A stretch of 39,427 nt of DNA, taken from positions 1 to 39,427 of the forward strand of contig JABANN010000323.1 in NCBI GenBank assembly GCA_013115125.1, given 5' to 3'. The position numbers and the translations under genes were made by a program. Within the stretch, counting starts at the first letter, position 1; each line of letters begins with the position of its first letter. This document shows positions 7,321-34,819 of the stretch, one piece after another. The notes below the pieces were generated by a model. It had not been told where the DNA came from, ran no database searches, and was given only the letters and a program-made list of their open reading frames with translations. The stretch comes from Perkinsus olseni. Taxonomy: Eukaryota.

Positions 7321-8814
7321 AAAGGAGATGGCAGCTACAGTACAATTTATCTAATTATCGCTAATTTTAAAATTTACCTCATTTCTCTGTTCTTGTTGCG
7401 TGGCATGGCTCGGGGGTCACTTTTACGATGGCGTGTCCTAGGACTGCGATGTTAGTGATATAGAGAAGCCTGGATTGTACCATCAGTATTGGGAATCAAG
7501 CTGCGAAGTATCGACCTGATGGTCGGACTCATGGAATTGTGCCAATACCGACGACTTAATTGTCTCCTTTCACATTTGTTGCGATGTTGGGTTCCGAGTC
7601 TATAGGTCGTGTCAGAGTCATCTTGAACGGGGACTCAATTCCCATCGTGAACGTGGACCTCTTCCCTGAGGTCTCTCCCCTGAGGACTCGGAGGTTCGAA
7701 TATTGTCGTGAACCGACCCAATTGAGTATAACGCAGACCCAATCGGATTGATTGAGATTCATTAAATTATTACATACAGACAACAGTAACTTACAGCGTT
7801 GAGATATGCGCTAAGATATTGGCGGGACATATCTGCACAGTCGTTGAGCCAGAGGGCGTTGATGCTCTGCTCTCAGTATGAGACGTCGAAGTCCTTAACA
7901 ACGTCGAAGTCCTCTGGCTTTGAGACCCATAGTCCTCTGCGGAATCTGCAGTGCAAGCGAACTTTTATCTTGCGTCGTCAGTACAGCTGTCGAGCTGCTA
8001 AAGGATGCACCATCTATCGTTAAGGCCTCCTCGCTTTCCTGTATCACGTGGATCAGCAATTTTTCTTGAAGAAGACTTGCTACATAGTTTAACCTTGGTC
8101 TCCAAGCCGGTGTTATGCTGACTCGGAGACTGATTCTTCATGAATGCATTAGCGAGTGCGTGGCTGGGAGCGAGGATCCCATGGTCGCTTGAATCTCGCT
8201 CCATTCATATACACCGGTATATCGGTGATCGGGCATGTATAGGTATTGACCTTCTGGAACAACCGTCTGTTCCAGCGAGTGACTGGCTCGTGAGCGACGG
8301 AGATGAGCGCGAAGATCCCAGGCCGAGAAGCTTTGCAACTTGCAAGATTCGGCTTAATATGCGTGATACTCTTTCAACTGCGATTTCGACCCCGATGCCC
8401 CCCTCGCTGACACTAGCAGTATGGCGTGCCACGGAAGGTGTGAAAGGCTTGAAGTCAGTTTCACAATATGGTTGACTCCGAGTTGATCTCAGAAACATGA
8501 TAGGCGATGCCTTTAGGGCTTACTCCGAGTAAGTTACTCGGCCCCGTTGAGACTTTCACCCCACCAAATGCGATGAAACAAGGTAGGCTCGGGTGGCATT
8601 CATTTACGCGCCCCTTGATGCTGCAAACCACATGGAGCGAGTCAAGCTTCATGCTCACGGTCGTAACTATCCGAGAAGAGCTTTCTTCATAGTCCAGCAG
8701 CATCCTGATCTATGTGAACGGTTCGCCGCGGATCCCCTAGTTGAAATTTCCATTACGGAGTACGCAGTGTGCCATGCTGGGACCCTGCAAGTCGTACTCG
8801 TTCGAGTCTCGAAC

Positions 8815-9015
8815 TTCGAGATCAACAGCGAGGACAGTATCGATCGTGAGTCATGACGGGGGATAGTATGGATTCACTTTGGTTCATGACACCGATATGG
8901 AAGCACCAGCTCCACTCGTACATACTTCGCGTCTATACAGCTACAGCACCAGCGAACCGCATCACCTTGCAGTCGAACGAAGCATCATTCGAGGAACTCG
9001 CTTTTCAGTTCGGAC
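8815..9015 (-). pseudogene. Decayed fragment of a Dada-type transposase (paralog of the 36395-39400 ORF)
   Basis: The minus strand reads ggtgctgtagctgtatagacgcgaagtatgta...agtggagctggtg...catatcggtgtcatgaa, matching 37439-37520 (ggtgctgtacttcgtatagacgcgaagtatgtgcacagtggggcgggtgg...catatcggtgtcatgaa) with indels and a stop codon. Confidence 0.8.
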
Positions 9016-10614
9016 TCCGAGTCTTGAAGCCCTTTGAGTAAGCTTGAAATTTCGTAATCACCGGTAACAACCGCCTTAATCATCGAAGCTCGACGACTTG
9101 ATCCGATCATCATCACTAATATCCTTCAATAGGTCCTCATCCTCATTACTCATATCCTCATCACTGATGATTCATCAGTAGCCTCTGACATCGCATGAAC
9201 AAGAAAGAACAGGGCACAATAACAGGTCTCCCTTTATCCCAAGGCTAGGCTGGTCAGCTAGCCAGGCTCGTGACTAGCGAGTGACTCGCTGCGAGTCGCT
9301 AAGCGCGGCGCTTAGTTAGCTTAAAGCGCCCCTATCTCAGCATACTGAGAATAGCTACGTTAGGTTACTCACAATTTCACTGGACAGGTTCTTTCCTTCT
9401 TCGTTGTGCTACTTCCATTAATCCCAGAAAGTGTTCCAAAATCTCTCAAATTTCCCTCTCAAACTGCAGCATTTGCTTCGCGGCTACGTTTCCGCAAATC
9501 CTACGGACGTGGATTGATGTGGTTCTGGAGAACATGCGGAAGGGGCACACCGATTATGTCCTGCACAACTGAGTGGATCGTCGGCGACGGGAGGGCGTAC
9601 GACCAAATGAAAAGCGTTCAACTGATTGCCCTCTGTATTACAAAGATTGTAACAAGAGCGTAGACGAGGCAACCCTGAGGATAACCAGGTGGATCCGCAG
9701 TTCATTCCGGAGGATTGGGAAGCGTGAGTTCTTGCTCGTAGATCATAAACTATGATTCATAATATGATCTTCATATCCCCTACCTGCACCTTCAGGTACT
9801 TCGTTGAGGGCATCGATGGCGACAGGCACTATTGGCACTGCTTTGTCTGTGGCCGGATCCAGCTTGATACTGTGATAAGCTGATAAGTTGTGTGAGCTGT
9901 AATTGTAACATACAACATACAGTAGCTAAATGTATTCGAGAAGATTAGAACCTAGACCGTCTAGGCTCAGCCTAGTAGGCTGGATGCTCCGACTATGAAT
10001 CGATGATACTAACTGCTCCATCAGTATATCTAGAATCTTTTGTAACCCTGCTCCGCGAGGCTGTTTCCGTCGGAAACTTTCCGATCAATCTTGAAGCGCG
10101 TGATGATTTATACGTATGGACGTACATTCGTGTCGAGGTAGATACGTACTGTCAGTACGGTACTGATGTAGGACGACGCATGTTGGGAATATGCACAATC
10201 TTGTTGTCTCCAATATGACGATGTTCCATGCACCTCTCAGCAGTTCGCGTTCATGCGTGAAAACTTCAACTCGGAAATTCCGAGTCGGAATGGTTTCTTG
10301 TCAGTCATGCTATTAAGGTTAATTATATTGATGGTTGAATGAAGCTGTGACAGCTAAGCTCTCAACTCGACGGGTTTTGAGAGTCCAAACGATGAATATT
10401 GTCGGGATCGTCAATCTCGATTTGATGACGTCTTCCATAACATTATTATGCATGAGTTGAAGCGCTCGGCAATGCCCGCGGTTAATATGTGATGGGCAGA
10501 GAACGACAAATCCTTGAATCCTTGAAGAGTTCGGAAGTTCCGAACTCTCCTACATGCTCATCTGCATCAACACGTTTCACGGACAAAAAATTAACTAACA
10601 GTGACTAAAATGAC

Positions 10615-10701
10615 TAACAGATCCTTGTTTCGGTCAGGACTCCTGAGTCGGGAGGCCTGTTGGTTATGAGCCCAACCCGCCATCCACTGCGCCAAGCTTC
10701 T
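10615..10701 (-). pseudogene. Initiator tRNA-Met(CAU)-like pseudogene
   Basis: The minus strand reads AGAAGCTTGGCGCAGTGGATGGCGGGTTGGGCTCATAACCAACAGGC...TCCTGACCGAAACAAGGATCTGTTA. It has A-box TGGCGCAGTGG, GGG-CT-CAT-AA and an initiator-type A-x-CGAAA T-loop. Stems are damaged and there are ~14 extra nt before the T-arm. Confidence 0.65.
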
Positions 10702-10757
10702 AAGACAGGAATTTGTTTCTGGCCTCCCGCTTGTTCAAGACTTGAATTTCAAGTCCG

Positions 10758-10827
10758 TACACCGTTCTAGCATTGAACCCGAACAACCTGCTGGAGACAG
10801 ATATCCTAATTATTTGACGAACGGGGC
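10758..10827 (-). pseudogene. Degenerate tRNA-like sequence (most similar to tRNA-Gly)
   Basis: The minus strand reads GCCCCGTTCGTCAAATAATTAGGATATCTGTCTCCAGCAGGTTGTTCGGGTTCAATGCTAGAACGGTGTA, with partial acceptor pairing, a GTC..TTAGGAT D-arm, a TCTGT/GCAGG stem with a shortened loop, and a GGTTCAAT B-box. Confidence 0.5.
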
Positions 10828-10887
10828 ACAAATTCTTACTAGCGGACGGACAGTCTCGCGACACACCCGTGACGCCTTCATAGCAGT

Positions 10888-10933
10888 GCTATGATATGAT
10901 AGCTATGATATGATAGCATGATGCTATGATAGC
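10888..10933. repeat. Short tandem repeat (gctatgatatgata x2 plus degenerate copy)
   Basis: Directly visible. Confidence 0.7.
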
Positions 10934-11609
10934 ACCACATTACAATCAATCTACTAAGACCACAAATCGAGCTGGGGATCTCCCCCCGCAGAATCACGCC
11001 CTAATTTTTCATTCAATGAAGTGGAAGATCCTCATGTTCCCAAAAATCATTTTTGAAACGTCTCAAGGGTGTTTCAAAACCTCGTGAGCACTTTTGAGTT
11101 CACAGAAGTCAGTGCCGCGTGAGAGTTAAAGCTCAAACGGTGCCTGAGACGCTGGTTTAACTTAAACCGTACAGTCCTGATTGTGCGATAAATGCACTGC
11201 GATTAGTGAACTGAGAGATCGTCGGAATCGTGACGAACTTGCCCGAAGTGAACGCGCACGCTTCTCATGCCCAGCATACGGCGAAAGCTCTACCCCCAAG
11301 ACACGGAGACGCGACGCTCTTCAATTCACGTCTGTCTCCAGTAGAGACTCCCCACCCATGAATCCATCAATAACCTACCGCTCAGTCTAAGGCGAAGAAA
11401 ATTCTGGTGAGGATGTAAGCCCTCCCCCTAGAGAGAGCCAGTGCGGAGAGCTCGGATAAGGCGGCAATGAAAGCGAATCACTCTGAGCGATCTCGTTTCT
11501 GTGCAGAAGTTACAGACTGCAAGGTGTATGCTATGGTATGACAACTGCTACGGTAACCGTAGTACGGTTGTCAGTTGTACAAATCCTCAGCACTTCCCCA
11601 CACTGTTAA

Positions 11610-12486
11610 ATGGTCTCCTTCATCGTCTCCGCCTTGGGCTTCCTGCTGGCCTCGTCGCACGGAACGATGGCCATGCAGACTACTTTCGAACCAGCACCAG
11701 AGGTACACGGGAGCGATGAATGGCAGAATGTGCTCTTATCGATTATTTCTCGACAGATGAACGAGGCAAGCAGACTTAGCCGATTAGAAGGTCAAGTGTC
11801 TGTGTTGAGCGCTGTCGCGACTACGCTGCACAGAGAAATCGACACGATTATCGGTGATATCTCCGAGTTAAAGCGAAAACCGTCTGAATCGGTTGCCTTC
11901 AAACGAGAGGTATGATATCAGTCGCCTGAGTCCACTGGAGGACAATCATTATCGTCCTATAGCTGGAGAGTGGCCTCGACCGTTGCGATGCCAAGTATGC
12001 AGACAGTCTCTTGACCATGTTGAAACCAAGTACTGGTGGTCACAAAATCGCCTGGATAAGCACTACGTCTAGGCGATACGTCTCTTACTGGTGATAGTGG
12101 GGGTCAAGTTGACCAACTCAGCTTGCATGAACAGTTTCTCCTATGTGTCTATTGTCAGGAAAACCAAGAAAAGGACGACCCTCACGTTCTTTGACGAGAT
12201 GGGAGTGGGAAATGTGACGGGGCGACCGGGCGAAATCATGATTAAATTCCAAGACGTCTTCCCTTTTTATCACCTCATGGATATGATCACAGGAAAACTG
12301 AAAGGCAAGATGAGTGACGAGAGTTGTTTAGAAATGATCAAAGGCATCGAATCTAACCCGCCCAAGCATTACCAGGGAGAGATGTACCCAGTTGTACTGG
12401 TGCGTGACTCACCCCAAATAACTACGTGGATCAGGAAGTTCATCGATGACAAGATGCCCACGGCGTTGAGGATAGCTGCCGAGTAG
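11610..12486 (+). CDS. Predicted secreted protein with coiled coil, multi-exon, unknown function
   Basis: Signal-peptide-like MVSFIVSALGFLLASSHG and a heptad region RLSRLEGQVSVLSAVATTLHREIDTIIGDISELK. GT-AG introns start at ~11911, ~12030 and ~12098. The last exon ends ...CLEMIKGIESNPPKHY...WIRKFIDDKMPTALRIAAE*. Confidence 0.7.
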
Positions 12487-13412
12487 AACTCCTAGCAGTG
12501 CCTTCAGTTGGTACGCCCAACCATGCAGAGTGCGATGGCGGCTACCTACCAGATCTCATGTTTATCGATGTGGCTGTTCTCCTGTTGAGTTTAGTGCCGG
12601 GGCAGTGCCCCGCGGGCAGTCGGGCACTCCGGTTCGGTAATGTTGAGCTCAACGCTGGTGGGAGATGCCCGAATCCGTTCCCTTCGCCTGAGGTCGCCCC
12701 TAGAAGGAAATTCCACACGCGTTACCTTTCCAATTAACTTGGTAAGAGAATGCTATATCTTCCGAATTCTCAACAGGGTTGAGTCAACACATTGTGGAGA
12801 TTTTTTCCCTGTGATTCGCTACCACAAGAAAGACAGATCTTGTCAAATAGCGACATTGAAGACTGTCAGTTCCGCGTTGAAATACTCTTTAATATAACGT
12901 ACTAACGCGTCGGCCGCAGGATGCATGAGACGATTAGGAGATCCCGGATCCGCGTAAACGAGATCGTATAAATGCATGCTATCATATACTTTTCCACAGA
13001 GTGGGAGCTGAAGCCAAAGGCGACTCTGAACTCGGTCTACGGCATGTAGCCGTGAGCTAGCTGTTCACACTGTGCATTTGCCTGCTTTCGACTCTAAAGT
13101 TTGAAACTGCAAGCTTCGATGCCTCCCCACTATCACCCTGCAACGTGAAACGAAGGGCTGTTGTGCTTCTACTGATCGAGTTGATGGGCAGGAGCCGGTC
13201 TCGTAACTCCATAGCTCTGCTGATGGCAGCGATTAATCATCGCCACCGACGCAACTGTAGTAGATTGGGGTCCCGGCGGATGTAGAGACACCGAGACAGT
13301 AGCTGTTAGCTTCAGCGATGGGGGTAGGAAAATTTCTGTTATCTAAAAAACGCTCATGTAAATCCCATGTCAAGCTCAACACTGCGCAAGCAATTCATCA
13401 GAAACAACCATT

Positions 13413-15229
13413 TTAGACGTTCATAAAGTGCTCGAGCCACGCTTTTTCGATGCCAACACAATGGCCCATGCCTACAACTCCCACCATTTTCCGGTGACTC
13501 GACCGACACAAATAACCTGCAGCAAGCCCGTAAAACGAGATCCCAAACTCTTACTATTCTACCTGCCATCGTTCTATCCCTGTCTTCAATCATAACCTCG
13601 TACACATGAGGAGCACATTTACGCATGGCTGCGTTAATCTGGGCAGCTTTTTCTCTGCTCTTCAGCTGCTCAGCAGTATCCATGAAACCTGATACCATGG
13701 TACGGCGCTATGATACGCCCGCTCAACTTGACGATCGCCGTTGCCGGGTACATGGATTCAGTGCAAGCCGTCAACTTCCATCGAGCAGAATGTTGTGCTC
13801 AGGAGCAGCCGACTACATAGGACGGTATAACTGTGGAACCTTCATATTTAGTCGCCTGTTACTCCTGTACTGGAAGGTGGTCTGTAATTCTACTACAGAC
13901 TGTGAAAAACTAATAGCATTCTTCGTACGCTTATACTCGCACGGAGTTGTGAACAGTTCGTTGTTATCTCGAAGGTCAGTTTGACCTTCGCTTTGAAAGC
14001 GAAAGTCCGAGCGCGCCGTGAGTACAGTGTAGTCGAAGCCAGTTTTGTTGAGGACACGAGAACATCTCCAAAGTCTCCCAATTAAACACTTGACGAGGCA
14101 GGCTAGTAATTCTAACACCGACTATGCCGATCCTATGAGAATAGCGCAGTCCTTCATACTACAAGCGTGTGTTCCTACCTCTGGAATGGTCAATGTCTAG
14201 GTCAAGGAGCTCTCTGCATGCGAGCATCTGTTGCCAATCCTGCTGTAAAGCCCGAGTGAGGCCTTCCATCGTCAATGTTATGTCTATGTCACCAGCAATT
14301 ACCTGATCAATCCAGGAATCGCGACGAATGGTCAAAAGCCCAAACCCTCCGACGGTCAAACTTCACCAAAGCGAGCAAGTGCACTTGATAACGGGATTGC
14401 TCCGTGTTACAAAAGACTAACTCTCCAACTTCAACTGAGCTGCACGGCGCGTAGCATAGAGTCCGCATAAATACTGCAACCCTGCAACTCGCAAATCCAT
14501 CGAACGTTTTCACGCTCTCACTTTGGCGCCGACCTCCTCGGCAGCTTCCATTGCATTCTTGAACTCGGCCCCTGGTTCTATTCCCATCGACTTGAAATTC
14601 CCTAAGAGGTTAACCAGTAGGGTCACTGTCGAATACTCTTCAAGACGCTCAGGTCTGTTGGTATACCACCCGATGTCAACCCGCTCGCCAAATTCTCCTG
14701 CACACCTCGTGAAATTCAACGGTCTAGATACGTGGAGACGGTACGGTCCAGACAGATCCACTCTCTTCACGACGTCAGGCTGGACCAGCCTGGCTGGTAT
14801 TGCTCATTCTCCCTCGAGCCACCATCGGCCGCATGTGACCCCACCATAGAAGCCTTTGAGAGCTTGTTCCAATAGTCCTTGCATCGGTAGTCCGCCGCCA
14901 CTGCCCAGTCCTCGGAGAAGTACTTTGAGCATCTCTCCCAACCCTCCCGGACTAACACCCAACCCGCCATCTCTCATCTGCCACCAAAATACCGTACCCT
15001 AACCTCACTACTCTCCGTAGCAGTGGTCCACCTTCTGGATTCTTTTCGGGCATAGCTCTACCATAACGCCGGATGGACGCTCCTTGATAATCATGTCGCG
15101 AACCTCTTGCGCGCTCGACGACGAAATATGCGCTGTTCCTGAGACGAGTAGGAACCAACTTCCACTACATAACCACGGACCGCCCTCTAGAACTGATTTA
15201 AGCAGAAAAATTATACTGTCAGATTTCAA
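13413..15229 (-). CDS. TraB/PrgY-family protein (TRABD-like), multi-exon; 5' end unresolved
   Basis: Family motifs GTAHISSSSAQEVRDMIIKERPSGVMVELCPKR, PGAEFKNAMEAAEEVGAKV-IAGDIDI, VMIEDRDRTMA and KMVGVVGMGHCVGIEKAW. Stop at 13413-13415. Confidence 0.85.
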
Positions 15230-16840: not shown

Positions 16841-16894
16841 CGTCCATCAGGCGTTATGGTAGAGCTATGCCCGAAAAGAATCCAAAAGGTGAGT
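16841..16894 (+). pseudogene. Inverted partial copy of the TraB exon (RPSGVMVELCPKRIQK followed by a GT donor)
   Basis: cgtccatcaggcgttatggtagagctatgcccgaaaagaatccaaaaggtg differs at only two positions from the reverse complement of ~15029-15079. Confidence 0.75.
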
Positions 16895-17879: not shown

Positions 17880-18738
17880 CTCCTCCTGCTCCTGTCGGAG
17901 GCTCCTAACACGTCACCAATAACCCCGAGGCAGACGTGGAAATACGTAGTACTTGCACTGCCTCCTCGTCAAGCGATAGAGAAATACCCTTCGCGGGCTC
18001 TGTTGTCGGACCTGCAGAAACCACCAGTTCAGGCTTTGAGCTGAAGACACCGGAAAACTGAGCGCTGCCACCAGTTACTCATTAAGCGCTGACCGTATTG
18101 CGCATGCGAGCATACCGAATACTCCAGACCCCGAATAGATTTTTAAATAGACTTATGAACCTCTCCCGACTGCGTTGTCTATGAACATCAACGGAGGAGC
18201 AGTACTCACATCGACCTACGCCCGCTCATTATACTGGACGTCGTCCAGTGGACGACTCTGTGGTGAAGAGAAAAAGCAGCATAAGATTCTATCCTCCCCG
18301 TCAAGGGTTGCGGCATTCAATAGCTAATTTGTACTTGCAAATGATAACAGAGGAGAGGGTTGCTCGATAGGGGCGAAATGCCCCAATCGTTAAGCACGAC
18401 GGATCCCCATACCCTTCAATTTGCCAAAAAGTTGTCATTCAACAAGGTTACGAAGCGAGCGCTCCGTAAGAAACTTTTTGGAGGCTTTCAAGTACGATGA
18501 CAATAACAGGACTGTAACAGGACTGTGTGATCGCAAAAAGTACTACCTGAGTTTTTCCTGCTCTTTCCTTTTCGGCCATTGTCTTTGCCAAAAACAAGTG
18601 ATAACCCTCGTACACAAGAGTCGCAGCATTCTCCCAGTCCAATGGTCGAAGCGCTCGGCGGCGTTGTTCTTGCGTCTCTTGAAGTCGAAGGCGACGGGGA
18701 CATTGCGTAGCCCAACATCCAAAAAATGCAAGCCTCAA
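17880..18738 (-). CDS. Exons of a hypothetical protein (model incomplete)
   Basis: Exon-like ...RLQETQEQRRRALRPLDWENAATLVYEGYHLFLAKTMAEKERAGKTQ|gtagta, plus small AG..GT-bounded blocks at ~17989-18012 and ~17880-17905. Confidence 0.35.
18234..18255. repeat. 22-bp direct-inverted-direct scar (8-mer ctggacga)
   Basis: ctggacg-tcgtccag-tggacga. Confidence 0.75.
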
Positions 18739-19458
18739 CAGACAACACCGAGTGGATTGAAGGTGTATTTTAGTATAGCGAAGAGCTGATACTTACAGGA
18801 AGCTACCTATGTGCAGTCTTCATGATGATGATGATGATGATGAGGTTACCGTCATCTCCGACGTTTCGAATTAGACGACTGGAAACAAGTGCTATACAAT
18901 TCAAGGTTTTGCCAGGCTCGGTCGTGGATTATTACCCAACCTGACAAAACCCTAGGTATTATTGGCACTTGTGGTTTTATCAAATTGATTATCACTCCGC
19001 CATCATGAAACCTGATCATATAGCAACGGTTCGTTGATAATCAATAGAGTTCCACCCACGACATGAAGAACGCTAGCGAGAAACAGATTCCACATTTCAC
19101 ATCGCCAAATCCTCATTTGGTAGGTGAGCAACGCGTAAAAAACATTTTCTTTCACTCGCGGAAAACGCCACTTTACGTATTACGGGCGAACCTCCAATAA
19201 TTATCGATACACGCCCTATCAAGAGTCGTCAACTCTGCCGAAAGGCGTATCCTAGGAGCGGCATACCAGAAATCATTCTTCCGCTGACCATTAACACACT
19301 TCGAGCCGAACAACAACGGTATAACAGAAACAAATAACTGACATGCCGAAAAACGATATAATCAACGTAGAGCTCAACCTGGCTTCCCAAGATACCTAAA
19401 TCGCCTAAAAGATTCTGCCGAGCTCGTATGCAGCAGCTAAGCTCACTGCTGATGATGC

Positions 19459-23084: not shown

Positions 23085-26000
23085 ATGTTTGACGATGATA
23101 ATCTACTGAAGGCATTTAATGAAGTCGCCCACGCGCTTGCGGATGAGCGGGGACTTCTGGGCCGGATCAGAGCCGAGCATGATGAACTTAAGGTGGGGAA
23201 GAGGGCGGATTGCCGTCAGTAATGGGGGTTTCAAGATAAGATTTTCTGGGTAACCTTGTGAGAAGGAGGAAATTCGTAGAATCCCGTCGGCCGTGGCCTA
23301 TAGGGAAATGCCTAGAATAAAACGCACAGAAAATCCTTCAATCGGGCAAAAATTCTGAATCGGGCAAAAAAATCTTCAATCGGGGGGAAAGTGGTTCGTG
23401 TTGACAACAGCGTCTCTATTATAGACAGAATTGAAGGACGACCATTCCCCCTCGTCTCCTATTAATAACTGTTCGGTTTCATAAATTATGCATAGAGTCG
23501 TCGAGCATACCATTACGATCTTCATAGTAATTTCCGAGGTTGAGAAGGAACAATGATTACATGATGATCAGAATCTGCGCCTCTCACTAAGGCTTTCCGT
23601 CAGGACTTCTGGTCATTCGACGTAGCTGAGAGGCAATTGCTGAACTACAACGTAATATCTCTCCCGTTGCTCAGGTTGCAGAGTCGGTCATTGCCGATCT
23701 CGCCAGGCTGCGTGCAGCAGCTAGAGCCACTGAGGTACCTCCGGTCGCGCAAAAGAAAGAAGAAGATACCACGAGCCAACAGCAGCAGCAATCTGAAGAT
23801 AATGTTGAATCTCCTCCCAAGAAGGATGTTATTGACGACCCGGTCGAAAGGATATTGAGCAGAGCAAAAGAGGCGTTGTTGGCTGAGAAACTGGAGAGGA
23901 AAATCGACAGGTATTGATCGGTCGGGTTATGTGTCTCGAAGTACGTCTGGAAAACGCGTAATACCGAGCAATGAGGCGCTAGAAATTGAAACGAAGAAAT
24001 CGAAAAGTTTCTTGTCTGCTGCTATGCGTCTACTCATGCTGTATGAGATATCTTCGAAAATACACATCTCGAGTGATGTATTTCCAAAGATACTCGATGA
24101 ACTAAACTTGCAATCTTGTTAACGCAGTGGTTGGCATCTGTTGTCTCCTCCCTACCTCGCTGGGATGCGTTTCGCACTAGCGTTCGTATCATGGATGAAA
24201 CGTATACTACTTTCTTTTTTGCGTTCGATTGCATTCGATAGGAGTCACCGTGCACGACTGGCGCCCTAGGTAGGTTCGGTAGATTTGCCTTATGATCTTG
24301 GCGTGATCCTTCGCTATCAGACCATCATACAAGCGAGAGACTGCGCGGAGAGTGGGGAAAATCGAGGAAGCCCGAGATGGGAAGGCCCGCGGCAAAGAAA
24401 ATACCAAAAGTAATGATCTATATTTCGAATTCGTCTACTTCGCTATCGGAGGTGATTCCGCACCGCACAGCTTCCCTAGGGGGCATGCGCTCACGTGAGC
24501 GCCCATAGTTGGGTATGAAGGGTCCTTCGTCAGGAGGGGCCCCGTCTTCAACTGCGCGTAAACCGCCGGAGAGACCAGGCGTTGCTGGCACAGCGGGTCC
24601 GGGAGATCTGAAGAAGGAGGCTCGCAATGAAGGAGTGAGTGGCAATGTGGCTGCCACACATACTCTGGAATTTTTCGCGGATCCGAAAATTTACGAATGG
24701 ATCGCCGCCAGCGATTTTTCGAGGAAATTTTTTGGCGTTTAGATTTTTTTATGAGTAAAGAGAAAGCGGCTCTGATTTAGTACACCGTTACGGTGAGAAG
24801 TTTCGATAGCGGCCCACTAGAACTTCTAGTCTAGAAGCCATAACTGACTCGCTATGGGTGAACCCGTGCCAGGTCGCCTTCCTGTAGTTCGATCGCACCG
24901 GTCGCAACCTTGATCACCCTTTGAGCCAGTCGACACCACAGATCCCTTCACCATTGATACAACACTAGTATGCAACTTGTCGGGGAAATATTATCCAACA
25001 GGAGAAGGAACAAGCAGAACAATACATTACTAACAGTAGCTGAGGATAAGGGATCCAGCACTTCCCACAGCACACAGCGATTGGGCGATACCAGTGATCA
25101 ACCTCGCACTGTGTATCCCGCAATAGCGGCGGTGGATTGAACGTTTGTAGAACACTTGCAGTCTATCGCGTGAAGGGTTTTTATCAGGAGAAGTCGTCCT
25201 CAAGTTTGAAAGCATTTATCGACGAATCCAGAATCCGCGTAAATAGGTGCAGGGAAGAAACAGAGCAGGCACGTCGGAGGGCCTGCGGTCATCCAGGTAA
25301 TTGTAGTGTTAGTAGCATAATTTCTTGCATTCTAACCATTCTTGCTTGAATTTTGATGCCACTGTTCTATTAGGGGCATTAGATTCGCCCCCGGAAGCGG
25401 CATGGGATGGTTCGAAGTACCGAATGGAACTCCTCCAGATGTGCTTGCCGCTCCTGAGAGCGCTAAAGGATGATATAGGGAAGAACGCGGGAGGAGAAGT
25501 AGTTCGGATTAATGGGTATCAGCGTTTCAGTTATCAACCTCGGATGTCGAATCGGCTGCATATCGCCGTCGGAATTTCATTTTCTACTAATAACTTCGAG
25601 TGGTGCCTATAGGCGAGAAAGTCTGAGATAGAATGATTGAGACACCAGATATTTACGGCCGCTCGCGACCGTCTTATGTGTCGCTCCGCCTGTGATTGGG
25701 AACTCAATACCCAAGGATAATAGATAACAGATACAAGTTTATACGAAGATAAGTGGTAATGGAATAGTGTAGTACGCCATAAGTGAGCTAAGCTAAGATA
25801 TCTGTATCATAACAGCTAACACAAGAGTATTACACGCCGAGTGCGCTTGAACTGGTGAAGTATCTTGTGGTTGACAGGTGGACATAACTAGGTTAACCTT
25901 ATGGTCGGAGATACTCTGTTGTATGTGGTCAGTTCGACACGCGAGGCGCCTGTCTGTGTGGCTGCCCACAGGAGAAGGTGAGATATGGTCGACTGAATTA

Positions 26001-26096
26001 AGGCATTCGAGAGCCCTGTTAGAGATCCTTGGTGACGAGCCCAGTGGCATGGGGAGAGGCGATTCTCTACAATTAACTGCTACTAATGGAGGCTAA
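23085..26096 (+). CDS. Hypothetical multi-exon protein, head-to-head with EF-Tu
   Basis: Spliceable exons: MFDDDNLLKAFNE...HDELK | VAESVIADLARL...ERKIDR | PSYKRETARR... | ...VYRVKGFYQEK...GHP | GALDSPPE...AGGE | VDITRLTLWSE... Confidence 0.6.
23332..23390. repeat. Three imperfect ~19-nt tandem units (aaatyyt-aatcgggc) in an intron
   Basis: aaatccttcaatcgggcaaaaattctgaatcgggcaaaaaaatcttcaatcggggg. Confidence 0.6.
24816..24837. repeat. 22-bp direct-inverted-direct scar (8-mer actagaag)
   Basis: actagaa-cttctagt-ctagaag. Confidence 0.75.
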
Positions 26097-26707
26097 CTCC
26101 GTGCTCACGTTTTTGGTTGATTATTGTCAATTCAGGGACCCAAATTAGCATGAATTTGCGGGAAGTGACGAGTGGCATAAATTGTTATGGAGTAATCGTG
26201 TTGAATGATCATTAGTATCGTGGCACTCAACCGTCTATTTTGACACAGTAGGACTGCATTCTCATCGGGATGCGTTTATAGACGGTAGATATATGACTGA
26301 TGGATAGCCGTATGAACAGACACGCGCTTACTCGGGAATGTCATTGGAAGCGAAGATCGTTAGGCTGATCGCTTCTTTTGGAAACATTGCCGTGTTGTAG
26401 CAACTTTCATGACGATGGCTAGTGGTTGTTATGATCAACAATCAATATCGGGTCAACGATCATCCCTTAGAATGTATAAAGAATAGACGAACGCTTCGAG
26501 TTACAACTTGAAGGCGATCATTCTCTCTATAGCACCATTGCCATCACGATACTAAAATATCGGATAGCGAAAAAACGAGATTGAACATTTCGAAATGCTT
26601 GTGACATTTACTGAAGTATTAGGTATCGAAAAATTGAAATAGCTTTGCTTTGTGAATCGTTCGTGGGCAGTGAAAAGCTTCTTCCCCCGGGGAATTTCCC
26701 CGCCCTC

Positions 26708-27163
26708 ATGGCTGCTATCGAAGATGCTGCGCCCAAGAAGAGGGGTCAGTACCAATCATATCCGAGTTCGACTCGGACGAAGGTCGTGCAAGCGGCGATG
26801 GAGGGGAATCCTTGGCGGGACGTCGCGCGTGCATTGGGCGTGAAAATGAGCACCGCGCGGAGTTGGGTGAAGTCAGGCAGGACAGCATGCTTGCCAAGAG
26901 GGGGCAAAGTTGTTGAGCCGAAGAGAAAGATTTCAGAGGAGTACGGAGACTTCATTTTTGAAGTGTTTAGAAGATCTCCGACAACCACCTTCGCTGAAGT
27001 GGGAAGGCTGTTGCGCCGTCGGTTTAGCCTTCAAATCGATCCGACTAATATTTCGAGATATATGAAAAAGGAGGAGAAATTCAAGGAGGTGGGTGGGATG
27101 GGCAGCTTGGGAACTGCAGTGTGTAACGAAAAATGGCACATGAAAAATCGTCCTCAAAAATGA
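26708..27163 (+). CDS. Tc1/IS630-transposase-like bipartite HTH DNA-binding domain; probably first exon of a spliced gene (possibly to ~28592)
   Basis: YPSSTRTKVVQAAMEGNPWRDVARALGVKMSTARSWVK...PRGG...KISEEYGDFIFEVFRRSPTTTFAEVGRLLRRRFSLQIDPTNISRYMK. A donor GAG|gtgggt lies at 27089. No DDE domain is seen downstream. Confidence 0.75.
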   Translation: MAAIEDAAPKKRGQYQSYPSSTRTKVVQAAMEGNPWRDVARALGVKMSTARSWVKSGRTACLPRGGKVVEPKRKISEEYGDFIFEVFRRSPTTTFAEVGRLLRRRFSLQIDPTNISRYMKKEEKFKEVGGMGSLGTAVCNEKWHMKNRPQK

Positions 27164-28986
27164 GGCCACTATGATAAATGTTATGATGAGGCCACTATGG
27201 CGCATGATAGCAGCAGCTGGGGCTCAGGCGTCACTCAGTAGTTCCTCACTGTTTTGATTGTTCGACCGTCGTCCGGTGTTATCCTCTCCGTTACGGACAG
27301 TGAGCGTGAAGCCTATCATTCCGAGGTGGGTCAAGAAGGCGGAGAACACTCTCGTTACCAAGCTCAGCAGTTCCAAAATTGGAAGGATTTCCGGCGCCTC
27401 ACAATTTTCGTATAGGACGAACTTCCGTTTCACTATATTATTATGAAGTATAATTTGTTCTCATCGGTTCAACTGTATAATAACAAGAGATGATCGATTC
27501 CTTCATAGCCAGGATAACGCTTGATTACGTGAGGTTACGTCATGATTCGTCCGACAAATCCTGCATAACAGATTAGGTTGTTGGTCAGATCCTCGAGCTA
27601 CGTCAGATGCGTCCAAGAGGAGGAGGATCCAGTCTGATGGCGAAGCCTACTGCATCGGTGAAACCGTCTAGTCTGAATTTACGGCTTGTCCTCGCTCAAT
27701 GTTTCATCCACAAATACTCGAGTCTCTCGAGGACGGACATACCCCCTCTCTCAGGAACCACGCCGGACTACTAGCGAGCTCCTCAGATCGGGCCCTATCC
27801 AATCCTGTGGGCGATTTGACCAATTACCTGTGATCTCGCGACGTCCGACAAGCAGCACTCTATTGCCGAGGATGCGGAAGAGCGGAAGATTATCGAAATG
27901 AAGCACCAAGGTAGAGCGAGATCGTTTAGGTTACATCGATCTTCGCGGGTGAGCACGAAAATATGAAATTAAATGAGCAATATCAATCGCTGGATCGTTC
28001 GGAACTCGCCGGTGGAATGAGGGCATGAGAGGGCGATCGCGAGGGCACTCGCGTCGCTCCCACTTCGAGCCTTCTTGAATTCTAGTGTGTCGGCAGTTTA
28101 GTCTGACCGGCGGGTGCTCGTTTTTGTGAAACCGGTGAGCTCAACTTTCACCGATGTGCTTATTTCATGCGGGTGGCATCAGCGTGGCGCTCCGGTATCG
28201 TGGGAGTATTTTTTTAACCTCGAGTAGTTTGGAGACTGAGCAGAAGAAGAGTTAGAAGTGGGTTCAATCATCTTTGTGATCTCTACCTTCGTCTTCATTG
28301 TGGCCATCTCAGATGCAGATTTAGAAATTTCATGAAAAGGAGTTGCCGACAACCTCATCGCTACGTGAGAGCCGCATCTGTGTTTTGTGGTTCGACGCTT
28401 GAGAGTCAACGCATGCGATTTTCATTTCCGTCACTTCAGGACGGCCGTACCATGTACAATCGAGAACGAGAGGGTCCCTTCGTCGTAGCGACCGATTGCG
28501 TGGGCAGCCGGACGGCGGGAGCTGGAGCGGCTCAACAGTGGAATATTGCGAGCAACGTCTTGGAATTCGATCATTGCGCTGCTGTGGCATGATTTGCTTT
28601 TCTTGTGTGTCTTACTTTTCGCGAGTTTGGTTTTCTCAGAGGGCCACCGGCTCTTTTAATCAGGCATAGTTGACTGGGAACACTATATCATGGCCGAGAC
28701 TTTACACGTGTGTATCATGCACGGATCAATAATGCCCAGGACCTATGTTATGATATCATAGCTCTAGTGTATTATTTAGACCACTAAACCATAGATATAT
28801 CAGTCACGTCTCGTTCGGATTCTGCTATAGCCGCGATAGGCTATCGTCGATAGCAATCACCACTGGTTGCTGCCGATCATTTAGTGATCAGACGATTGGA
28901 TGATCGTGATATTCTGTGTCGTCGGGGTTATCCGGAGTGGTACTAGCTAGCCCTGTGCTAGTGAGTGCCACTGAGGGTGCTCAGAA

Positions 28987-29058
28987 AGGTTCTATCGGGA
29001 TTCGAACCCGAGTCGCTGGATTCAAAGTCCAGAGTGCTAACCGCTACACTATAGAACC
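28987..29058 (-). tRNA. tRNA-Gln (anticodon UUG)
   Basis: GGTTCTATAGTGTAGCGGTTAGCACTCTGGACTTTGAATCCAGCGACTCGGGTTCGAATCCCGATAGAACCT forms a complete cloverleaf. Confidence 0.97.
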
Positions 29059-29287: not shown

Positions 29288-29328
29288 ACGGGTATGCATT
29301 ATCCAACTACGGGTATGCATTATCCAAC
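29288..29328. repeat. Perfect 20-nt tandem duplication (acgggtatgcattatccaac, 1-nt spacer)
   Basis: Directly visible. Confidence 0.85.
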
Positions 29329-29923
29329 ATGTAAGGTCACGGCACGCTTATCGAGCTGAAGCCTTATGCGCGTCGTGTGCAACGACGTAGAAGGACTCGG
29401 TTCTTCATCCAACCACCACCATCCCTGGATACGGCCATGCCAACCCAACAGTGACCCCCCTCACACGGCTGCGCGTTGCAGCCCGAAGTTGAGTTGTTCG
29501 AGCTACTGTATGAATAGCCGACTTTCACTATGGGTCTCAGTATCGCGACGACACCTCTGCCATAGTGAATATCAGCAACCTGCGATGCTGGCGAGGCCGA
29601 TGGCCACAGGCTTGCGGCAATTACGCACCACAAGCGCGTCTAACCGCAGGAGGCTGGTGCGGGTCGGCCGTGCTCGGCTAGTGATGTGTTCACTGCTGCG
29701 GAGACTTCGGAAACACTGCAACCTGGTCCAGTGCCATCTAGAGCATGGATGTTCGCGGGTCTCGGGTTTGGTGTTTTCCTTCCCGCACTCCCGTATTATT
29801 CTTCGGGATTTTACGTGGTAGCTCGTGACAGAGACAGCCTATCAATTCCACGACTCGTGGACCACGAGTTAAAATAGATGCATCTTCGCGCTTGTCCATG
29901 TTGTACTGTATCGAACAGAACGG

Positions 29924-31867
29924 CTACATGATGAGGCCGCGTTGAGGTCTCATCTCGGTCTTCTTCGCCTTAGCTCGAATTGAGCGATGCCACAAGCCCT
30001 GTTTAAATGCTTGCGTCAAGACTCCATATCGAAACGGCGATCTTCTCTTGGGCTCCAACGACGCAGCGGGACACTCTCGTCTGCTGATTCCGTGAGTTGA
30101 TCTCACTCGTGCTGATATCATAACCGGAATTTCAGGAGGACATTTTCGATGAGAGCCGGAAGCTGACGATGGGCTCCCCAGATGTAGCGGGTGGCGGCGA
30201 CAGCAGAGAGGCTTTGGTCAACATAGGTGTGCTAGAAGTCAAGTAGGCAAACCCTTCAGCGCTTGCGGTGAATGTAAATAGTGTGCACAGATCGAAGTCA
30301 TGGCCGCACGATTCGAAACTGCTGCTGCATGACCGTGGAGACTGCGTCTTTACCAGAGTGAGCCTTCGCCATACTAGCTCGACCAGGAAACTCTCTCAGC
30401 ATTTTCGTATCCGACCAAACCCAGGGCGGAAATTCTTCGTTACCCGCCTGAATTGTGAGATTAACATCATGTGCGAGGTTGCCAAGGTAAGCCCAACCAA
30501 TCATTGCGCGAGCTGGCCTGCGATTCGAGGGTCCCTCACAAAAGCTCTCAAATCGCTGCATTGGCGAGTTGTTAAGCCTAGCTTTCCTACGAATTCTGTA
30601 GAGTTATCTCCCAATCCCCACAAAATTGCTTTGCTTTCTCAGCGGAACCGTCTGATAATGAGTTCATGTGTTCTTCGCGAAATGGTCTTTATTGCCACGT
30701 GTATTTCACGAACTGATTTGACTTCATATCCATCGCGATTTCGCGCCTCACGCATTACGGGGTTCGTGTAGGATCCAGCTGGGGCCTGATCAATCTCAGG
30801 AATACCTGTTTGAGTTTTGGAAGGCCATCGGTCATCTGATGCATCCAGAGACCATCTACGTTGACAGAGTCCTGCTGGCTAAGCGTTTAGTAATCCCTAT
30901 GTGAAAAAAAACTTAGCCAGAGAGTCTCTGGCAGGTCCACGAGGTCATCAGTTCCACTGAGCCTTCGGAACCTGCACAGAATTTTGGTAACGAGACAAAG
31001 CTGTTGAAGCCATGAATCTCGTTCGTATTTCCTACCTAGCCCCGACACTACCCCACAGGTACCCTTGATGAGGCACTCGGCTCATTCGAAGGGCTTCCTG
31101 CGGAGGTCGGAATCGGGTTGCCACGCTCCGATCGCCACCAGGGTTGCCGTTTTACGTCTTCCCACCTTAGCGAATCTCGTGACGGGTTCCATCAAGGCAC
31201 AAAAGAGGAATTCTCATATCAGCAACTATTTATGAACTACATTCTTAGTTCATTCTCGTACATTCATCTCTGTATTTCGTGAGCTGTGCTCGACTCGCGG
31301 ATGTTCAGATACCGGACCACCCGTCGGCGGCCCCGCGCCTTCCGAGCCAACCTGCGGATTCGGTCGACAGTGAGACCCATTCGCCACACTATTTTCTCTA
31401 TAGCGGAAGCTTGCGAAACCTCGTCGTACATTCGCAGGCCTAAAACTCTCCGCAACGCCTGCAATCTGGTGAAGAGAATTCGTGTTGAAATTCGAGCTTC
31501 CTTCATCAAATCCCAAAATAAGAGAAAGTCGAGTATTTCAGTACGTGAAAACTCAAGTCCGGAGAAGAAAGGGTTCGGGTAGCACTATAAATAGCGTCAC
31601 CATTTTGTATGCTTTCACTGCAACAAACTCACCGTAGCGAACCGGTAAAGATCTCTCTGAAAGTTGACGAGGAAAACCATGTAGGCAAAACAGTCCGAAC
31701 CTCGGATGGTCGTGGTGGTATAATACCACTGGTATTGACTCATCAGGTGGTTTCTCCGAGAAGCAACCCGTTTTGAGTAAGCCGGAAGTGCTGTTCGAAA
31801 TATCGATCGAAAGAGGAAGGTCAGATTTATCATAAGTCGAACCTATCGGTATCCTGAGACGACGCAT
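29924..31867 (-). CDS. Hypothetical multi-exon protein
   Basis: Series of AG..GT-bounded coding-like blocks: DESIPVVLYHHDHPRFGLFCLHG..., RILFTRLQALRRVLGLRMYDE..., FRRLSGTDDLVDLPETLW, DSVNVDGLWMHQMTDGLPKLKQ, AGNEEFPPWVWSDTKMLREFP, and a final ...RPQRGLIM*. Confidence 0.5.
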
Positions 31868-31933
31868 TCAGTCATTCGATATATCATGCCGTGCTTTAGC
31901 GCGACTTCCTTTTGAAAGTTTTGAAAGAAAGTC

Positions 31934-31965
31934 GCGCGAAACTAGCGCGAAACTAGCGCGAAACT
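31934..31965. repeat. gcgcgaaacta x3 tandem in the short interval between divergent genes
   Basis: Directly visible. Confidence 0.8.
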
Positions 31966-32116
31966 CTCCATCACGGCGGAGTTTCGAACCGAAACTTTCC
32001 CGCTTTTCGGGGGAAAGTCCGCAATAATTGCGTCGAAATTAGTGGCGAAAATTCGAAGCTCAATCGTACTTCGCCTTCCGTCCTCCGTTTGAGGAGTCGA
32101 CAATGTTTGATCAACG

Positions 32117-34819
32117 ATGTTGATCATTTAGGTGGGCGACAGTACGGGTACGGTCTAGTACGGAGTACGGTACGGGTACGGGTACGAGTACGGCTCCGTA
32201 CCCGTACTACCCGTCGCAGCGGTTCCCAAGTACCGTACTAGTACGCCGTACTCGAAGTACGGCGTAATTTACTACACGTATGCGTTATTTAATATATTTA
32301 ATACGTACTAATTCTCCGTACCCGTACTAGGTTGTCAGTTTGAAGCGTACTCCGTACCGTACTTTCCTCGACCCCAGTACGGTTGCCCAGCTCTAGTTGA
32401 TCACTCCAAAGTGGGGATCTGTCTCTGAATCTAGGGTTGACCTAACACAAGATTCGACAAATGTTCACTCTCAAAGCGCTCGAAGGGATCCAGCGTTGCA
32501 CGTGTCTCGAAGATGAACGATTGCCTGATTGAAAGTACTGGCGACTTCTCAAAATCCTGACCCGAAAATCACAAGTGCGGTACTCCCTAATCGCAGTAGA
32601 AATTGTTCTATGTGTATACAGTCTGTCAATTATGCTGTACTCCGCGCGCTCTGTCCTCTGTCATGGTTACGAGCCTTCATACGCCTCACGTTCATAACGC
32701 CTGACAAAATTGAGTAGAATTTCACTTCCAAGAATACAATAGTAGACGTGTAAGAAATCTTTTTTCTCAAGGTATACGCTGTGCGCTGGGGCCGATGATA
32801 CATCTGGTTCGCCGTCGAATGAAGCACTGTGGCAAATAGTGGCTGGTGAGAAAGCGAAAGATTGTCTTGGCTCGATTGGGATGCTCTTCAGTTGACAAGG
32901 AGATGAAGCCACCGCGTAAGGGACTAATGTCCGCTACTATCGGCCGGGCTAGGTCGACCTTGAACCGGTGCGGGTATCTGAATCCAACCTAAAGACTTCA
33001 TGCTCTTTTCCCAGTCCATTACAGACGGTGCGCCGCAAGCTCCCTGGAGGTACCACTCCCTACATCTCAACGTATCTTGAGAAGGGTGACGTGCTCAGGT
33101 CAGCCATTCGATGCATCGCCAGATTGATCTCTCCACTGTTCTCAGATTCGGATCACTTCGTCTCATCATAGCCGATGTGGTGCTCGACTTCAGTGCTCAG
33201 CGGCGGACTGCACACTCCTCTCAGATGACTACTCTCAGCGTCTCCAGGAACCAGTCGGGTGAGCCATTTCGCCTGAGTGAGATCTTGCAACCTCTCTCTC
33301 CATAAATCGCATCACAACATGCTCGTCTTACACGCCTAGAGGCTCCCTTTTAGGCGATTGTTCCAATGATGCCTCCTCAGCAAGTCTCCGGGATCTCAGT
33401 GAGAGCGGCCACGGCACTTCGGTGAGAGAATGCAGTCCTCGCCGTTCACTGACTGCCACAGGTATGTCGTATTTGTTTCGACGAAGAGTCGCCCGATGAT
33501 CCCCTCTTGCGGCCCTGCGACTGTAGAGGCAGTGTGAAGTTCGTTCACAAGAACTGCCTCCAGTGAGCAGCGGCTTGGTTGCGAAGTTTGTAGTTTCCTT
33601 TCAGGCGATGGGTCGAAGGACAAATGAGAGTTCGGCAGCTCCATCACGGTGGAGGAGAGTACCTCTTGGTGCCGATGAAATGTGAAATATGCCAGCAACT
33701 CTATCATGACCATGCCTACTCCCCTGAGCTCCTCCCTCGGTATGTCGCACTCTTCCCTTCGGGAATAGAGGGCATTTTTACCGGCAATGGGAATTACTTG
33801 CCGTAGTGGCGGTCCAGCAAAAAAAGCCTTCTGACCAGAAGTTGTGGAAATCTTTTCAATGTTGTTTCCGCTGGAGAATAAGTAGGGCGGAAACGTCACT
33901 GGCAATACTTCCGAGAAACGAACCTCACGAGAGCGCACTCCTGAGGACCTCAGGGACATCTCGGCTGAGGTGTCCTAGGCTAGGACTCCTAGCCATCATG
34001 ATTCATAAAAGAGGGGAGTGAAAGACGTATAACGCAAACGTTCCGAGCATTAGAATGAAATGCAGCTTCTGCACCTCGGCACCACCTTCCGGCATACTCT
34101 CATTTTTTTGCAGACCGGTGTGTCCCCATGTAGTGCTTGAGGAAGAGCCAACCTACCACCGTGGGACCGGGCAGATGATAGGCCGGAAAGTGACCAAGGC
34201 ATCGGTTTCCGTCGTCTATGATCGTTTCACCATCAGATCCACATAGTGCCCTTCCCCAAGCCCAATTATGTCGCCACTGTAGGTCGATCTAAAGATTGTG
34301 ATGTACTTCTCACCGACATTGGAGTCAGCCGGTCTCACGCTGCTATGAAGTCGGTCAGGCATGAGCACGATGAACTTCTTGTCGCCATTTACTTGTTAGA
34401 TTCTCACAAAATCGGATACTCCTTGTGGACCGAGGGAGTAAATTCGGCACTCTGCGAAAGTTGAAAGACGACAAAGTGATCCCTAATGGACTCCGAATTT
34501 TATGGCGCGCGGTCGTATTCAGGTCGAGTTGCAAACAGGCCGCACCTTCGCGGTCCAGCACAGCTCCAGTATGCTTGAACTCTCTGTTTCTAAAGTACTC
34601 AAATACAGATTATTTCCCGAACGATATTTGCCCCCGGTAATCCGTCGAAGTGAAGAGACGAGAAGCATTGAGCCAGAAGGTCAGGTGCTGTCGTCTGAAG
34701 AGGCGGAGCAGTCCCGCTTGAGGGCGTGCTCTCCTGACAGCATCGACTCCGAGATCATGGACGATGCTGGAATACAGGCGCAGCTAGCACGGCTCTTCCC
34801 CGAGACGGGTGTTCGGTGA
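32117..34819 (+). CDS. FHA-domain plus RING-CH (RINGv) protein, probable E3 ubiquitin ligase; multi-exon, may splice on to ~35950
   Basis: ALWQIV and LEKGDVLRFGSLRLII; RINGv VCRICFDEESPDDPLLRPCDCRGSVKFVHKNCLQRWV...CEICQ; FHA VGRSKDCDVLLTDIGVSRSHA...LVDRGSKFGT. Start and end are uncertain. Confidence 0.85.
32127..32395. mobile_element. Non-autonomous hAT-like MITE (269 bp) with 8-bp TSD GTTGATCA
   Basis: TSD at 32119-32126 and 32396-32403. Imperfect TIRs tttaggtgggcgacagtac versus tagagctgggcaaccgtac (14/19). Many subterminal GTACGG/CCGTAC repeats surround an AT-rich core. Confidence 0.85.
33972..33993. repeat. 22-bp direct-inverted-direct scar (8-mer gtcctagc) in an intron
   Basis: gtcctag-gctaggac-tcctagc. 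An adjacent variant cctgagg-acctcagg...ctgaggt lies at ~33940-33971. Confidence 0.75.

Follow-up and report, generated by a model that had tools for sequence, protein, structure and literature searches.

A 39,427-nt stretch of Perkinsus olseni DNA (assembly GCA_013115125.1, contig JABANN010000323.1, positions 1 to 39,427 of the forward strand), hereafter called the window, carries one stereotyped 22-nt palindromic figure many times over, and the question it raises is which process leaves such a mark. In this figure an 8-mer X appears as its first seven letters, followed by its full reverse complement and then by its last seven letters, i.e. X(1-7)+revcomp(X)+X(2-8). We refer to such sites as scars, grade them by d, the minimum number of substitutions to the ideal form, and report scans that cover the whole of the window and only the window. 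Results of our analyses indicate that the 22-mers are probably donor-site footprints of a cut-and-paste DNA transposon with an 8-bp target-site duplication (TSD) and hAT-type excision. The most likely agent is a member of the hAT superfamily, for example the family of a MITE (miniature inverted-repeat transposable element) that resides in the window.

The original prediction, made from the letters of the window, had listed ten exact 22-mers, all of which proved to be letter-perfect, and the full scan raised the number to 15 (the five additional ones are marked in Table 1). To describe its specificity the pattern was generalised to X(1..n-k)+rc(X)+X(1+k..n), where k is the offset. At k = 1 the exact counts for n = 4 to 13 were 15, 2, 0, 0, 15, 0, 0, 0, 0 and 0, with those at n = 4 and 5 standing without a shuffled baseline, while 8-mers at offsets k = 0 and k = 2 gave no exact match in the window. 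The sharp peak at n = 8 that had been predicted for the genome is seen in the window at offset 1 only, and it stands out against shuffled sequence: sites with d of 0, 1, 2 and 3 numbered 15, 8, 9 and 11 in the window and on average 0, 0, 0.05 and 3.15 in 20 Markov shuffles, and ten dinucleotide-preserving shuffles contained no exact match at n = 8. As a control of real DNA we used 677,418 nt of unrelated metagenome loci (80 distant loci of at most 71% identity, taken from a search of metagenome contigs with the EF-Tu exon frame). These held no site with d = 0 or d = 1 and eight with d = 2, most of which were of low complexity by eye.

A similar picture was obtained for the palindromes of which the figure consists. 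Palindromes centred on a single nucleotide were found 33 times with an arm of 7 nt (1.85 expected) and 14 times with an arm of 8 nt (0.5 expected), whereas even-centred and 2-nt-centred palindromes occurred at expectation, so the enrichment is limited to the 1-nt centre. Two near-matches that had been pointed out at 10632 and 28833 are both present (the former at 10633 with d = 2, the latter with d = 1), as are five single 1-nt-centred palindromes at 9299, 9951, 10526, 10739 and 11154, with arms of 8, 7, 11, 8 and 7 nt, respectively. Those at 9951 and 10739 turned out to be parts of scars, the first of an older scar cut by the scar at 9961 and the second of the scar at 10733. Altogether, 33 scars were counted at no more than two substitutions, decayed and nested copies included, which amounts to about 0.8 per kb and to a contribution of 462 nt, or 1.2% of the window. 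They are clustered, 19 of the 31 non-overlapping ones falling within 8.5-12.8 kb, and their decay is graded from d = 0 through d = 3. The scars are made of X-derived letters alone and share no common sequence from outside X. When spacings were scanned for short footprints of the kind known from plants, microsatellites dominated and a clear excess was seen at the scar spacing only. Restriction of the pattern to n = 8 among n = 6-13, together with the 8-bp TSD of the resident MITE, is what a hAT-type footprint calls for.

The bases at the two palindrome centres were examined in a separate scan, in which six core positions had to agree in all three segments and both centres were left free. In the resulting 19 22-mers, position 8 was the complement of position 22 in every case and position 15 the complement of position 1 in 15 cases; a centre base identical to its partner was found in none, at either centre. 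Ac/Ds footprints are reported to bear this signature, with the base adjoining the element complemented (PMC5873905, PMC1978519), and cleavage in that system has been placed at the 5′ flanking nucleotide (PMC1978519), with which the complemented centres agree. They match hAT-type cleavage, that is, a hairpin formed on the flank with a 1-nt offset.

From these features we infer a transposon intermediate, flank hairpins and an annealing step, which would follow one another as described below. Insertion would duplicate the 8-mer X. On excision, the transposase would nick 1 nt into each flank, and the 3′-OH of the flank would attack the opposite strand at the element end, giving flank hairpins whose tip is the base adjoining the element (left, x1..x7-x8′-x7′..x1′; right, x8′..x2′-x1-x2..x8). 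Host nucleases would then open the two hairpins by a nick in the 5′-terminated strand, 8 nt or more away from the tip, and so produce long 3′ tails, of which the left one (x8′..x1′) and the right one (x1..x8) could anneal perfectly over 8 bp. After trimming of flaps, filling of gaps and sealing of nicks, the top strand would read x1..x7, x8′..x1′, x2..x8, with a net gain of 14 bp. The product would be stereotyped because the outcome is independent of the nick position beyond eight bases. This geometry, hairpins opened far from the tip and joined through TSD complementarity, is the one put forward in the original prediction; it yields the 22-mer exactly, and the peak at n = 8 and offset 1, the complemented centres, the alleles and variant footprints described below, the nesting and the MITE all agree with it.

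Alleles were sought in contigs of four public sequencing runs, which we compared with the window over positions 8001-28000 (20 kb); such contigs lose rare variants, which bears on the search for alleles that still hold an element. Run X8 is a diverged sample under the same organism label, most pieces of which are 90-99% alike to the window. One of its contigs joins window position 10859 to 10929 through 34 letters. Set in the flanks of the window, this allele reads ...ACA GTCTCGC CGCGAGAC TCTCGCG ACACACCCG..., which is an exact scar for the 8-mer that the window holds there as a single X, and the gain is the predicted 14 bp. The same contig continues ...CCTTC ATAGCACC... and is without 49 nt of a palindromic tract of the window (10880-10928). 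Presence and absence therefore run both ways: X8 is scarred where the window has a single X, and plain where the window has the tract. Thus the unscarred site that a hAT footprint presupposes was found, in one clean case each way, and because of these two cases the scars are to be regarded as +14-bp presence/absence polymorphisms and not as artefacts. The original prediction had looked to other strains for alleles with a single X or a full element; the pair of single X and scar was obtained between the window and X8, while a full-element allele was not seen in the four runs over this span.

Over 9756-10482, a span of five scars, X8 is shorter than the window by 14 letters, and most of those scars are therefore probably shared, as judged from totals and not site by site. 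It is shorter by 43 letters over 8898-9767 and by 36 over 8001-8645, totals that are suggestive only. Contigs of run X1 match the window over 8001-28000 at 0 differences, all scars there included; X1 is possibly the source sample and is not counted as independent evidence. A contig of run X10, which comes from another study, spans 18005-18321 with the scar at 18234, again at 0 differences.

Besides the regular scars, the window contains footprints that depart from the standard form. The stretch 22108-22147, located within the RNA-supported intron 21786-22482, parses as GAGTGG-TGAAAAG-G-CTTTTCA-CCACTC followed by TTTTC-A-GAAAAGC, with X=TGAAAAGC. Its left palindrome has an arm of 13 nt and extends 6 nt past X into the flank, the right one has an arm of 6 nt, and both centres are complemented; the halves are joined at a one-base overlap and not via 8-nt complementarity. 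One-sided palindromes with arms of 8 nt were found at 13987-14003 and 30916-30932, in addition to the one-sided and variant footprints given in Table 1. The long arms (11 and 13 nt) support an origin from hairpins, since such arms are expected of hairpins whose opening point varies and often lies far from the tip. Collapse of the 31 non-overlapping scars with d of at most 2 to single 8-mers exposed two more, at 9741 and 9951, which are older scars interrupted by younger ones. The most complex arrangement is the tract at 10879-10934, which could be neither reduced to simple nested scars nor derived stepwise; it looks like the product of repeated insertion and excision, or of slippage, at a single site.

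The claim that a hAT-like MITE with an 8-bp TSD lies in the window was also borne out, the two TSD copies being identical (Table 1). The terminal inverted repeats (TIRs) of this element are imperfect, with 15 of 21 positions matching, its centre is AT-rich and its DNA fold has a z value of -6.8. Its GTACGG hexamers number 17 and form inverted arrays, with the plus orientation prevailing at the left end and the minus orientation at the right, and we take them to resemble the subterminal AAACGG motifs of Ac. The element thus has the marks of the hAT superfamily, namely short TIRs, short subterminal repeats and a TSD of 8 bp. Strict scans for a TSD combined with TIRs returned no element, or weak pairs at chance level (33381/36498, 16795/19027 and 28752/30121); the MITE escaped them, as its TIRs agree at only 7 of the first 10 positions. 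The composition of X was examined as well: over 32 scars, position 2 is T in 19 (p=3.6e-5) and A in 1. For Hermes, which makes 8-bp TSDs, a target preference nTnnnnAn is reported (PMC10368747). The bias at position 2 is in line with this preference, the other half of the motif being weak, and the earlier remark is correct that eight of the ten 8-mers first listed have T as their second or A as their seventh letter.

Several observations weigh against the explanation proposed here. A at position 7 is enriched only weakly (12 of 32, p=0.09). The MITE is single-copy in the window and is the one resident 8-bp-TSD element found there, against about 33 scars, and the scar density would demand very many fixed events. 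No hAT transposase domain was matched by Pfam among 143 stop-to-stop open reading frames (ORFs) scanned in the window (7 picked by eye from 58 of at least 100 aa, plus 136 of the 152 of at least 75 aa, the remainder being partly covered by the 7), and the same ORFs gave no Pfam match to the BED zinc finger or the hAT dimerisation domain. At no scar site did the four runs, over 8001-28000, show an element flanked by a copy of X on either side. X8 has 9 letters fewer inside the 11548 scar, and its 13-nt allele is neither an empty site nor a footprint that we were able to derive. Finally, strand symmetry would be expected of the proposed events, yet among scars with d of at most 2 the x1 pair (positions 1 and 15) is mismatched in 8, against 1 for the x8 pair. 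T occupies position 15 in five of these (9157, 10733, 26681, 28833 and 32019), while the mirror variant, A at position 8, was not seen among scars with d of at most 2 (5 vs. 0, p about 0.06). The T15 form is equivalent to two 7-nt arms with an A at the tip and possibly stems from a flanking nucleotide carried on the 5′ end of the element from site to site, as hAT chemistry allows; this idea leaves the single orientation of T15 unexplained.

A second candidate agent is encoded at the right end of the window. The intact, intron-less ORF of 1008 aa located there (ORF1008) has no Pfam match and 531 homologues, of which the closest (53-61% identity) carry the names Perkinsus olseni and P. chesapeaki and distant ones come from amphioxus, sea urchin, crinoid and chytrid. 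The Pfam domain DUF6729 was found in 12 of the 15 partners scanned. In an alignment of ORF1008 with 31 homologues picked from the 150 best, D362, D425, D449-x-x-H452 and E604 are nearly invariant, residues which we take to be a DDE plus (C/D)xxH arrangement, and which suggest that ORF1008 may be an unclassified DDE transposase. A profile search against PDB sequences gave no credible match, and no relative was found in the metagenome contigs. Neither ends nor a TSD of an ORF1008 element were found in the window, and the regions upstream of the two ORF1008 copies, when compared, had nothing in common that we could find. After the 17 scars in 7000-12000 had been replaced by a single X each, a tblastn search with ORF1008 merged three high-scoring segment pairs into one frame, with a score and E-value no better than before. 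As a separate observation, a palindromic unit, after which come three tandem GCGCGAAACTA repeats, lies at 31895-31965, and a 32-nt stretch there is 72% like one just upstream of ORF1008 (36223-36254).

The same excision and repair mechanism could be driven by an agent from outside the hAT superfamily, such as the DDE-like family of ORF1008, a Zisupton/Dileera-type element or a Mutator-like element (MULE). We consider this unlikely. In its favour, ORF1008 is intact in the window, has its 531 homologues and near-invariant residues, and has a decayed minus-strand copy that overlaps the densest scar cluster. In turn, the missing ends and TSD count against this family, as does the lack of a match of ORF1008 and its partners to the Pfam KDZ or hAT models. 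The only resident 8-bp-TSD element found looks Ds-like. KDZ, the domain of Zisupton and Dileera, likewise gave no Pfam match among the window ORFs scanned. A P-element footprint, in which an 8-bp TSD is accompanied by remnants of the element ends left at the donor site, does not describe scars that hold X-derived letters only. Zisupton and Dileera are reported to make 8-bp TSDs (PMC12730594), and the MULE Muta1 to make flank hairpins (PMC5499845). The Muta1 hairpin has a reported size of 43+43=86 nt, no offset being visible at the resolution of the gel, which limits the argument, and more than 90% of its excisions in yeast are given as precise (PMC5499845). The footprint to be expected of a MULE (a hairpin with no offset, a TSD of 8-10 bp and mostly precise excision) is not the one observed, as a scan of the window for X+rc(X)+X, the pattern at offset 0, gave 0 occurrences at n = 5-12.

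The scars might also have arisen with no transposon at all, either by template switching or fold-back error during replication, or through a nuclease of the host, perhaps a domesticated one, that cuts with an 8-bp stagger and leaves ends that turn into hairpins once filled in; by either route a single X would become a 22-mer directly. Empty and scarred states but never a filled one were seen, and scars far exceed resident elements in the window, as such an origin would have it; a cut-and-paste element of constant copy number would nevertheless be expected to leave many more scars than copies. Template switching or fold-back should give products of varied length in which the centre base follows no rule, whereas a single length class, at n = 8 and offset 1, with complemented centres was observed. 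The preference for T at position 2 fits a hAT target site, and the direct route takes more unprecedented steps than insertion followed by excision. Taken together, these points make a transposon-free origin very improbable. That the figure was created by assembly or sequencing can hardly be believed. Some library artefacts can in principle make palindromes, and we found no support for one here; the scars recur in X1 (possibly the source sample), at 18234 in X10 from the other study, and probably for the most part of the five-scar span in X8, which has a scar of its own, and they decay by degrees from d = 0 to d = 3. Excision of a transposon with an 8-bp TSD by hAT-type chemistry remains the explanation that we favour.

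How far this product resembles known ones can be judged from systems in which transposase-type hairpins are opened. Ascot-1, a small Ds-like element of Ascobolus described by Colot and colleagues in 1998, reportedly leaves diverse footprints with long palindromic tracts upon excision; its spectrum is reportedly diverse, while the scars of the window are one stereotyped product. Palindromic nucleotides also remain in V(D)J coding joints, where a hairpin of transposase type is opened away from its centre. These tracts are mostly 1-4 nt long, the hairpin is even and lacks the 1-nt offset, and there is no TSD, so no annealing in register can take place. A further likeness is to Ac/Ds footprints in Saccharomyces cerevisiae, Arabidopsis and Candida albicans, in which palindromic (P) nucleotide tracts built on the complemented element-adjacent base are described, with host factors opening the hairpins and joining taking place at microhomologies (PMC5873905, PMC1978519). 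In yeast, arms of up to 20 nt are reported, 47% of footprints have arms of at least 3 nt, and microhomology is present in 88-89% (PMC5873905). The reporter-assay spectra are heterogeneous, with 28 footprint types in 128 Candida revertants. In the window, by contrast, one class dominates the recognisable natural footprints, both arms comprise the whole TSD, the join is in register, and the scars are fixed or polymorphic in a wild genome at the density given above. Hermes and other hAT elements share with the scars the 8-bp TSD and the T2 half of nTnnnnAn (PMC10368747) and, as proposed here, the hairpin on flanking DNA (PMC5499845); they differ in that no hAT transposase was found among the window ORFs scanned and the A7 half of the motif is weak. 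For mPing, the TSD is reported to provide the microhomology that makes repair stereotyped (PMC4561436), a likeness to the present case; there the direct TSD copies anneal and the site is restored precisely, whereas here inverted, hairpin-made copies would anneal and add 14 bp. We found no report of the 22-bp product or of such scars in Perkinsus in the literature covered, a scope that leaves aside supplements, Yu et al. (2004) and Colot et al. (1998). Hairpin chemistry and long P tracts are known already; what appears to be new is that one product, joined in register, dominates the recognisable footprints and that it is dense and polymorphic in a natural genome.

Table 1. Positions of scars, related footprints and candidate mobile elements in the window
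Position	Strand	Feature	X or TSD	Remark
94..115		1-substitution scar		
6409..6430		1-substitution scar		
7958-9014	-	decayed ORF1008 copy		aa 337-742; 27-62% identity in pieces, several frames; overlaps start of dense scar cluster
8519..8540		exact scar	CTTACTCG	additional to the ten
8800..8821		exact scar	GTTCGAGA	
9157..9178		scar with T for x1′ at position 15		
9276..9297		exact scar	AGCGAGTC	
9299..9315		variant footprint, 1-nt-centred palindrome, arm 8		x2..x8 9 nt downstream
9631..9652		2-substitution scar		
9741..9776		nested scar pair		9742 d1; 9741 d1 after first collapsed
9961..9982		exact scar	CTAGGCTG	inside older d2 scar (X=CCTAGACG, spanning 9951-9986)
10063..10084		exact scar	GTTTCCGA	
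10145..10166		exact scar	CGTACTGA	
10270..10291		exact scar	CTCGGAAT	
10342..10363		2-substitution scar		
10526..10548		one-sided footprint, single 1-nt-centred palindrome, arm 11		
10633..10654		2-substitution scar		near-match first placed at 10632
10733..10754		scar with T for x1′ at position 15		
10853..10860		empty site, single X in window	GTCTCGCG	exact 22-bp scar in run X8
10879..10934		nested palindromic tract		copies of ATAGCA/TGCTAT in a mosaic, with a three-copy array of period 14 (Tandem Repeats Finder)
11183..11204		2-substitution scar		
11334..11355		2-substitution scar		
11470..11491		2-substitution scar		
11548..11569		exact scar	CTACGGTT	13-nt allele in run X8
12598..12619		2-substitution scar		
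12769..12790		1-substitution scar		
14777..14798		exact scar	AGGCTGGT	additional to the ten
18234..18255		exact scar	CTGGACGA	within RNA-supported intron 17463-18544; also in X10 contig
24816..24837		exact scar	ACTAGAAG	
26681..26702		scar with T for x1′ at position 15		
28833..28854		scar with T for x1′ at position 15		~130 nt from tRNA-Gln
29847..29868		exact scar	TCCACGAG	additional to the ten
31715..31736		exact scar	GTGGTATT	additional to the ten
32019..32040		2-substitution scar		position 15 = T
32119..32126		MITE TSD, left copy	GTTGATCA	
32127..32395		Ds-like MITE		269 bp, foldback
32396..32403		MITE TSD, right copy	GTTGATCA	
33972..33993		exact scar	GTCCTAGC	
36096..36117		exact scar	CCTCTATC	additional to the ten
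36374-39400	+	ORF1008, intact, intron-less, 1008 aa		no Pfam match; window ends 27 nt past ORF

The original prediction was based on the letters of the window; RNA contigs of runs X7 and X10 supplied the gene structure against which the scars can be placed. They cover a minus-strand transcript span at 16246-22839, with GT..AG introns mostly of 46-81 nt and several of 377-1082 nt. Of the exons, those from 22839 down to about 19400 code for an EF-Tu of mitochondrial type (431 aa). Within the span, the 17 exons are free of scars with d of at most 2; the one such scar (18234) is intronic, as is the long footprint at 22108-22147. The RNA contigs run on downstream of EF-Tu into a second reading frame, and 16246-22839 may therefore comprise two genes. 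A 59-nt inverted repeat pair (15029-15087/16833-16891, 92% complementary, with 1745 nt between) encloses the minus-strand transcript's last exons with RNA support; X1 depth indicates a single copy, and the flanking CAGTGGTC and AGTGGCTC look like an 8-bp TSD that differs by one indel.

Other genes recognised are one of several exons that has Kelch repeats and, at the C-terminus, a C3HC4 RING finger (2171-7317, plus strand), a helix-turn-helix ORF of 182 aa (HTH_28/HTH_23; 26615-27160, plus strand), which is 97-99% identical to three Perkinsus olseni proteins, and a tRNA-Gln (TTG) at 28987-29058 on the minus strand, found by both ARAGORN and Rfam. Two further repeats were noted. One, of about 925 nt (24911-25834), has an X1 depth of 3-6x baseline, with loose ends belonging to other copies on either border; it begins with TG and ends with CA, showed no TIR and no TSD, and may be a solo long terminal repeat. 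The other is an 87-bp foldback in the Kelch gene region (4010-4096) with 38-nt arms, 84% complementary, and no TSD by eye, whose inner motif (ATGAGGCCACTA) recurs twice at 27155-27205.

Studies of excision footprints normally rely on reporter assays that deal with only a few of them at once, and in bulk sequence such footprints are too heterogeneous to be spotted. As the footprint described here has one exact, searchable format, past excisions can be counted, mapped and roughly dated by a plain string scan, and in the window they outnumber the single resident 8-bp-TSD element found by about 30 to 1. Scars differ between isolates of the same label and are therefore a live source of indels that could serve as markers. 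Their stereotypy also bears on how the organism opens hairpins and joins ends. A bolder form of the reading given next would make the DUF6729-associated DDE family of ORF1008 the agent and so extend hAT-like chemistry to an unnamed superfamily. Tentatively, and with somewhat more doubt than confidence, we suggest that this alveolate lineage may repair transposase hairpin breaks in a near-deterministic way, by far opening and annealing of the inverted TSD copies, perhaps with tip-proximal opening or classical end joining missing or bypassed, so that each excision leaves a fixed 22-bp mark. If this is true, the marks would constitute a datable, genome-wide fossil record of cut-and-paste activity, and the scars would be a major class of indels between isolates and a seed of palindromic and period-14 repeats such as the tract at 10879-10934.

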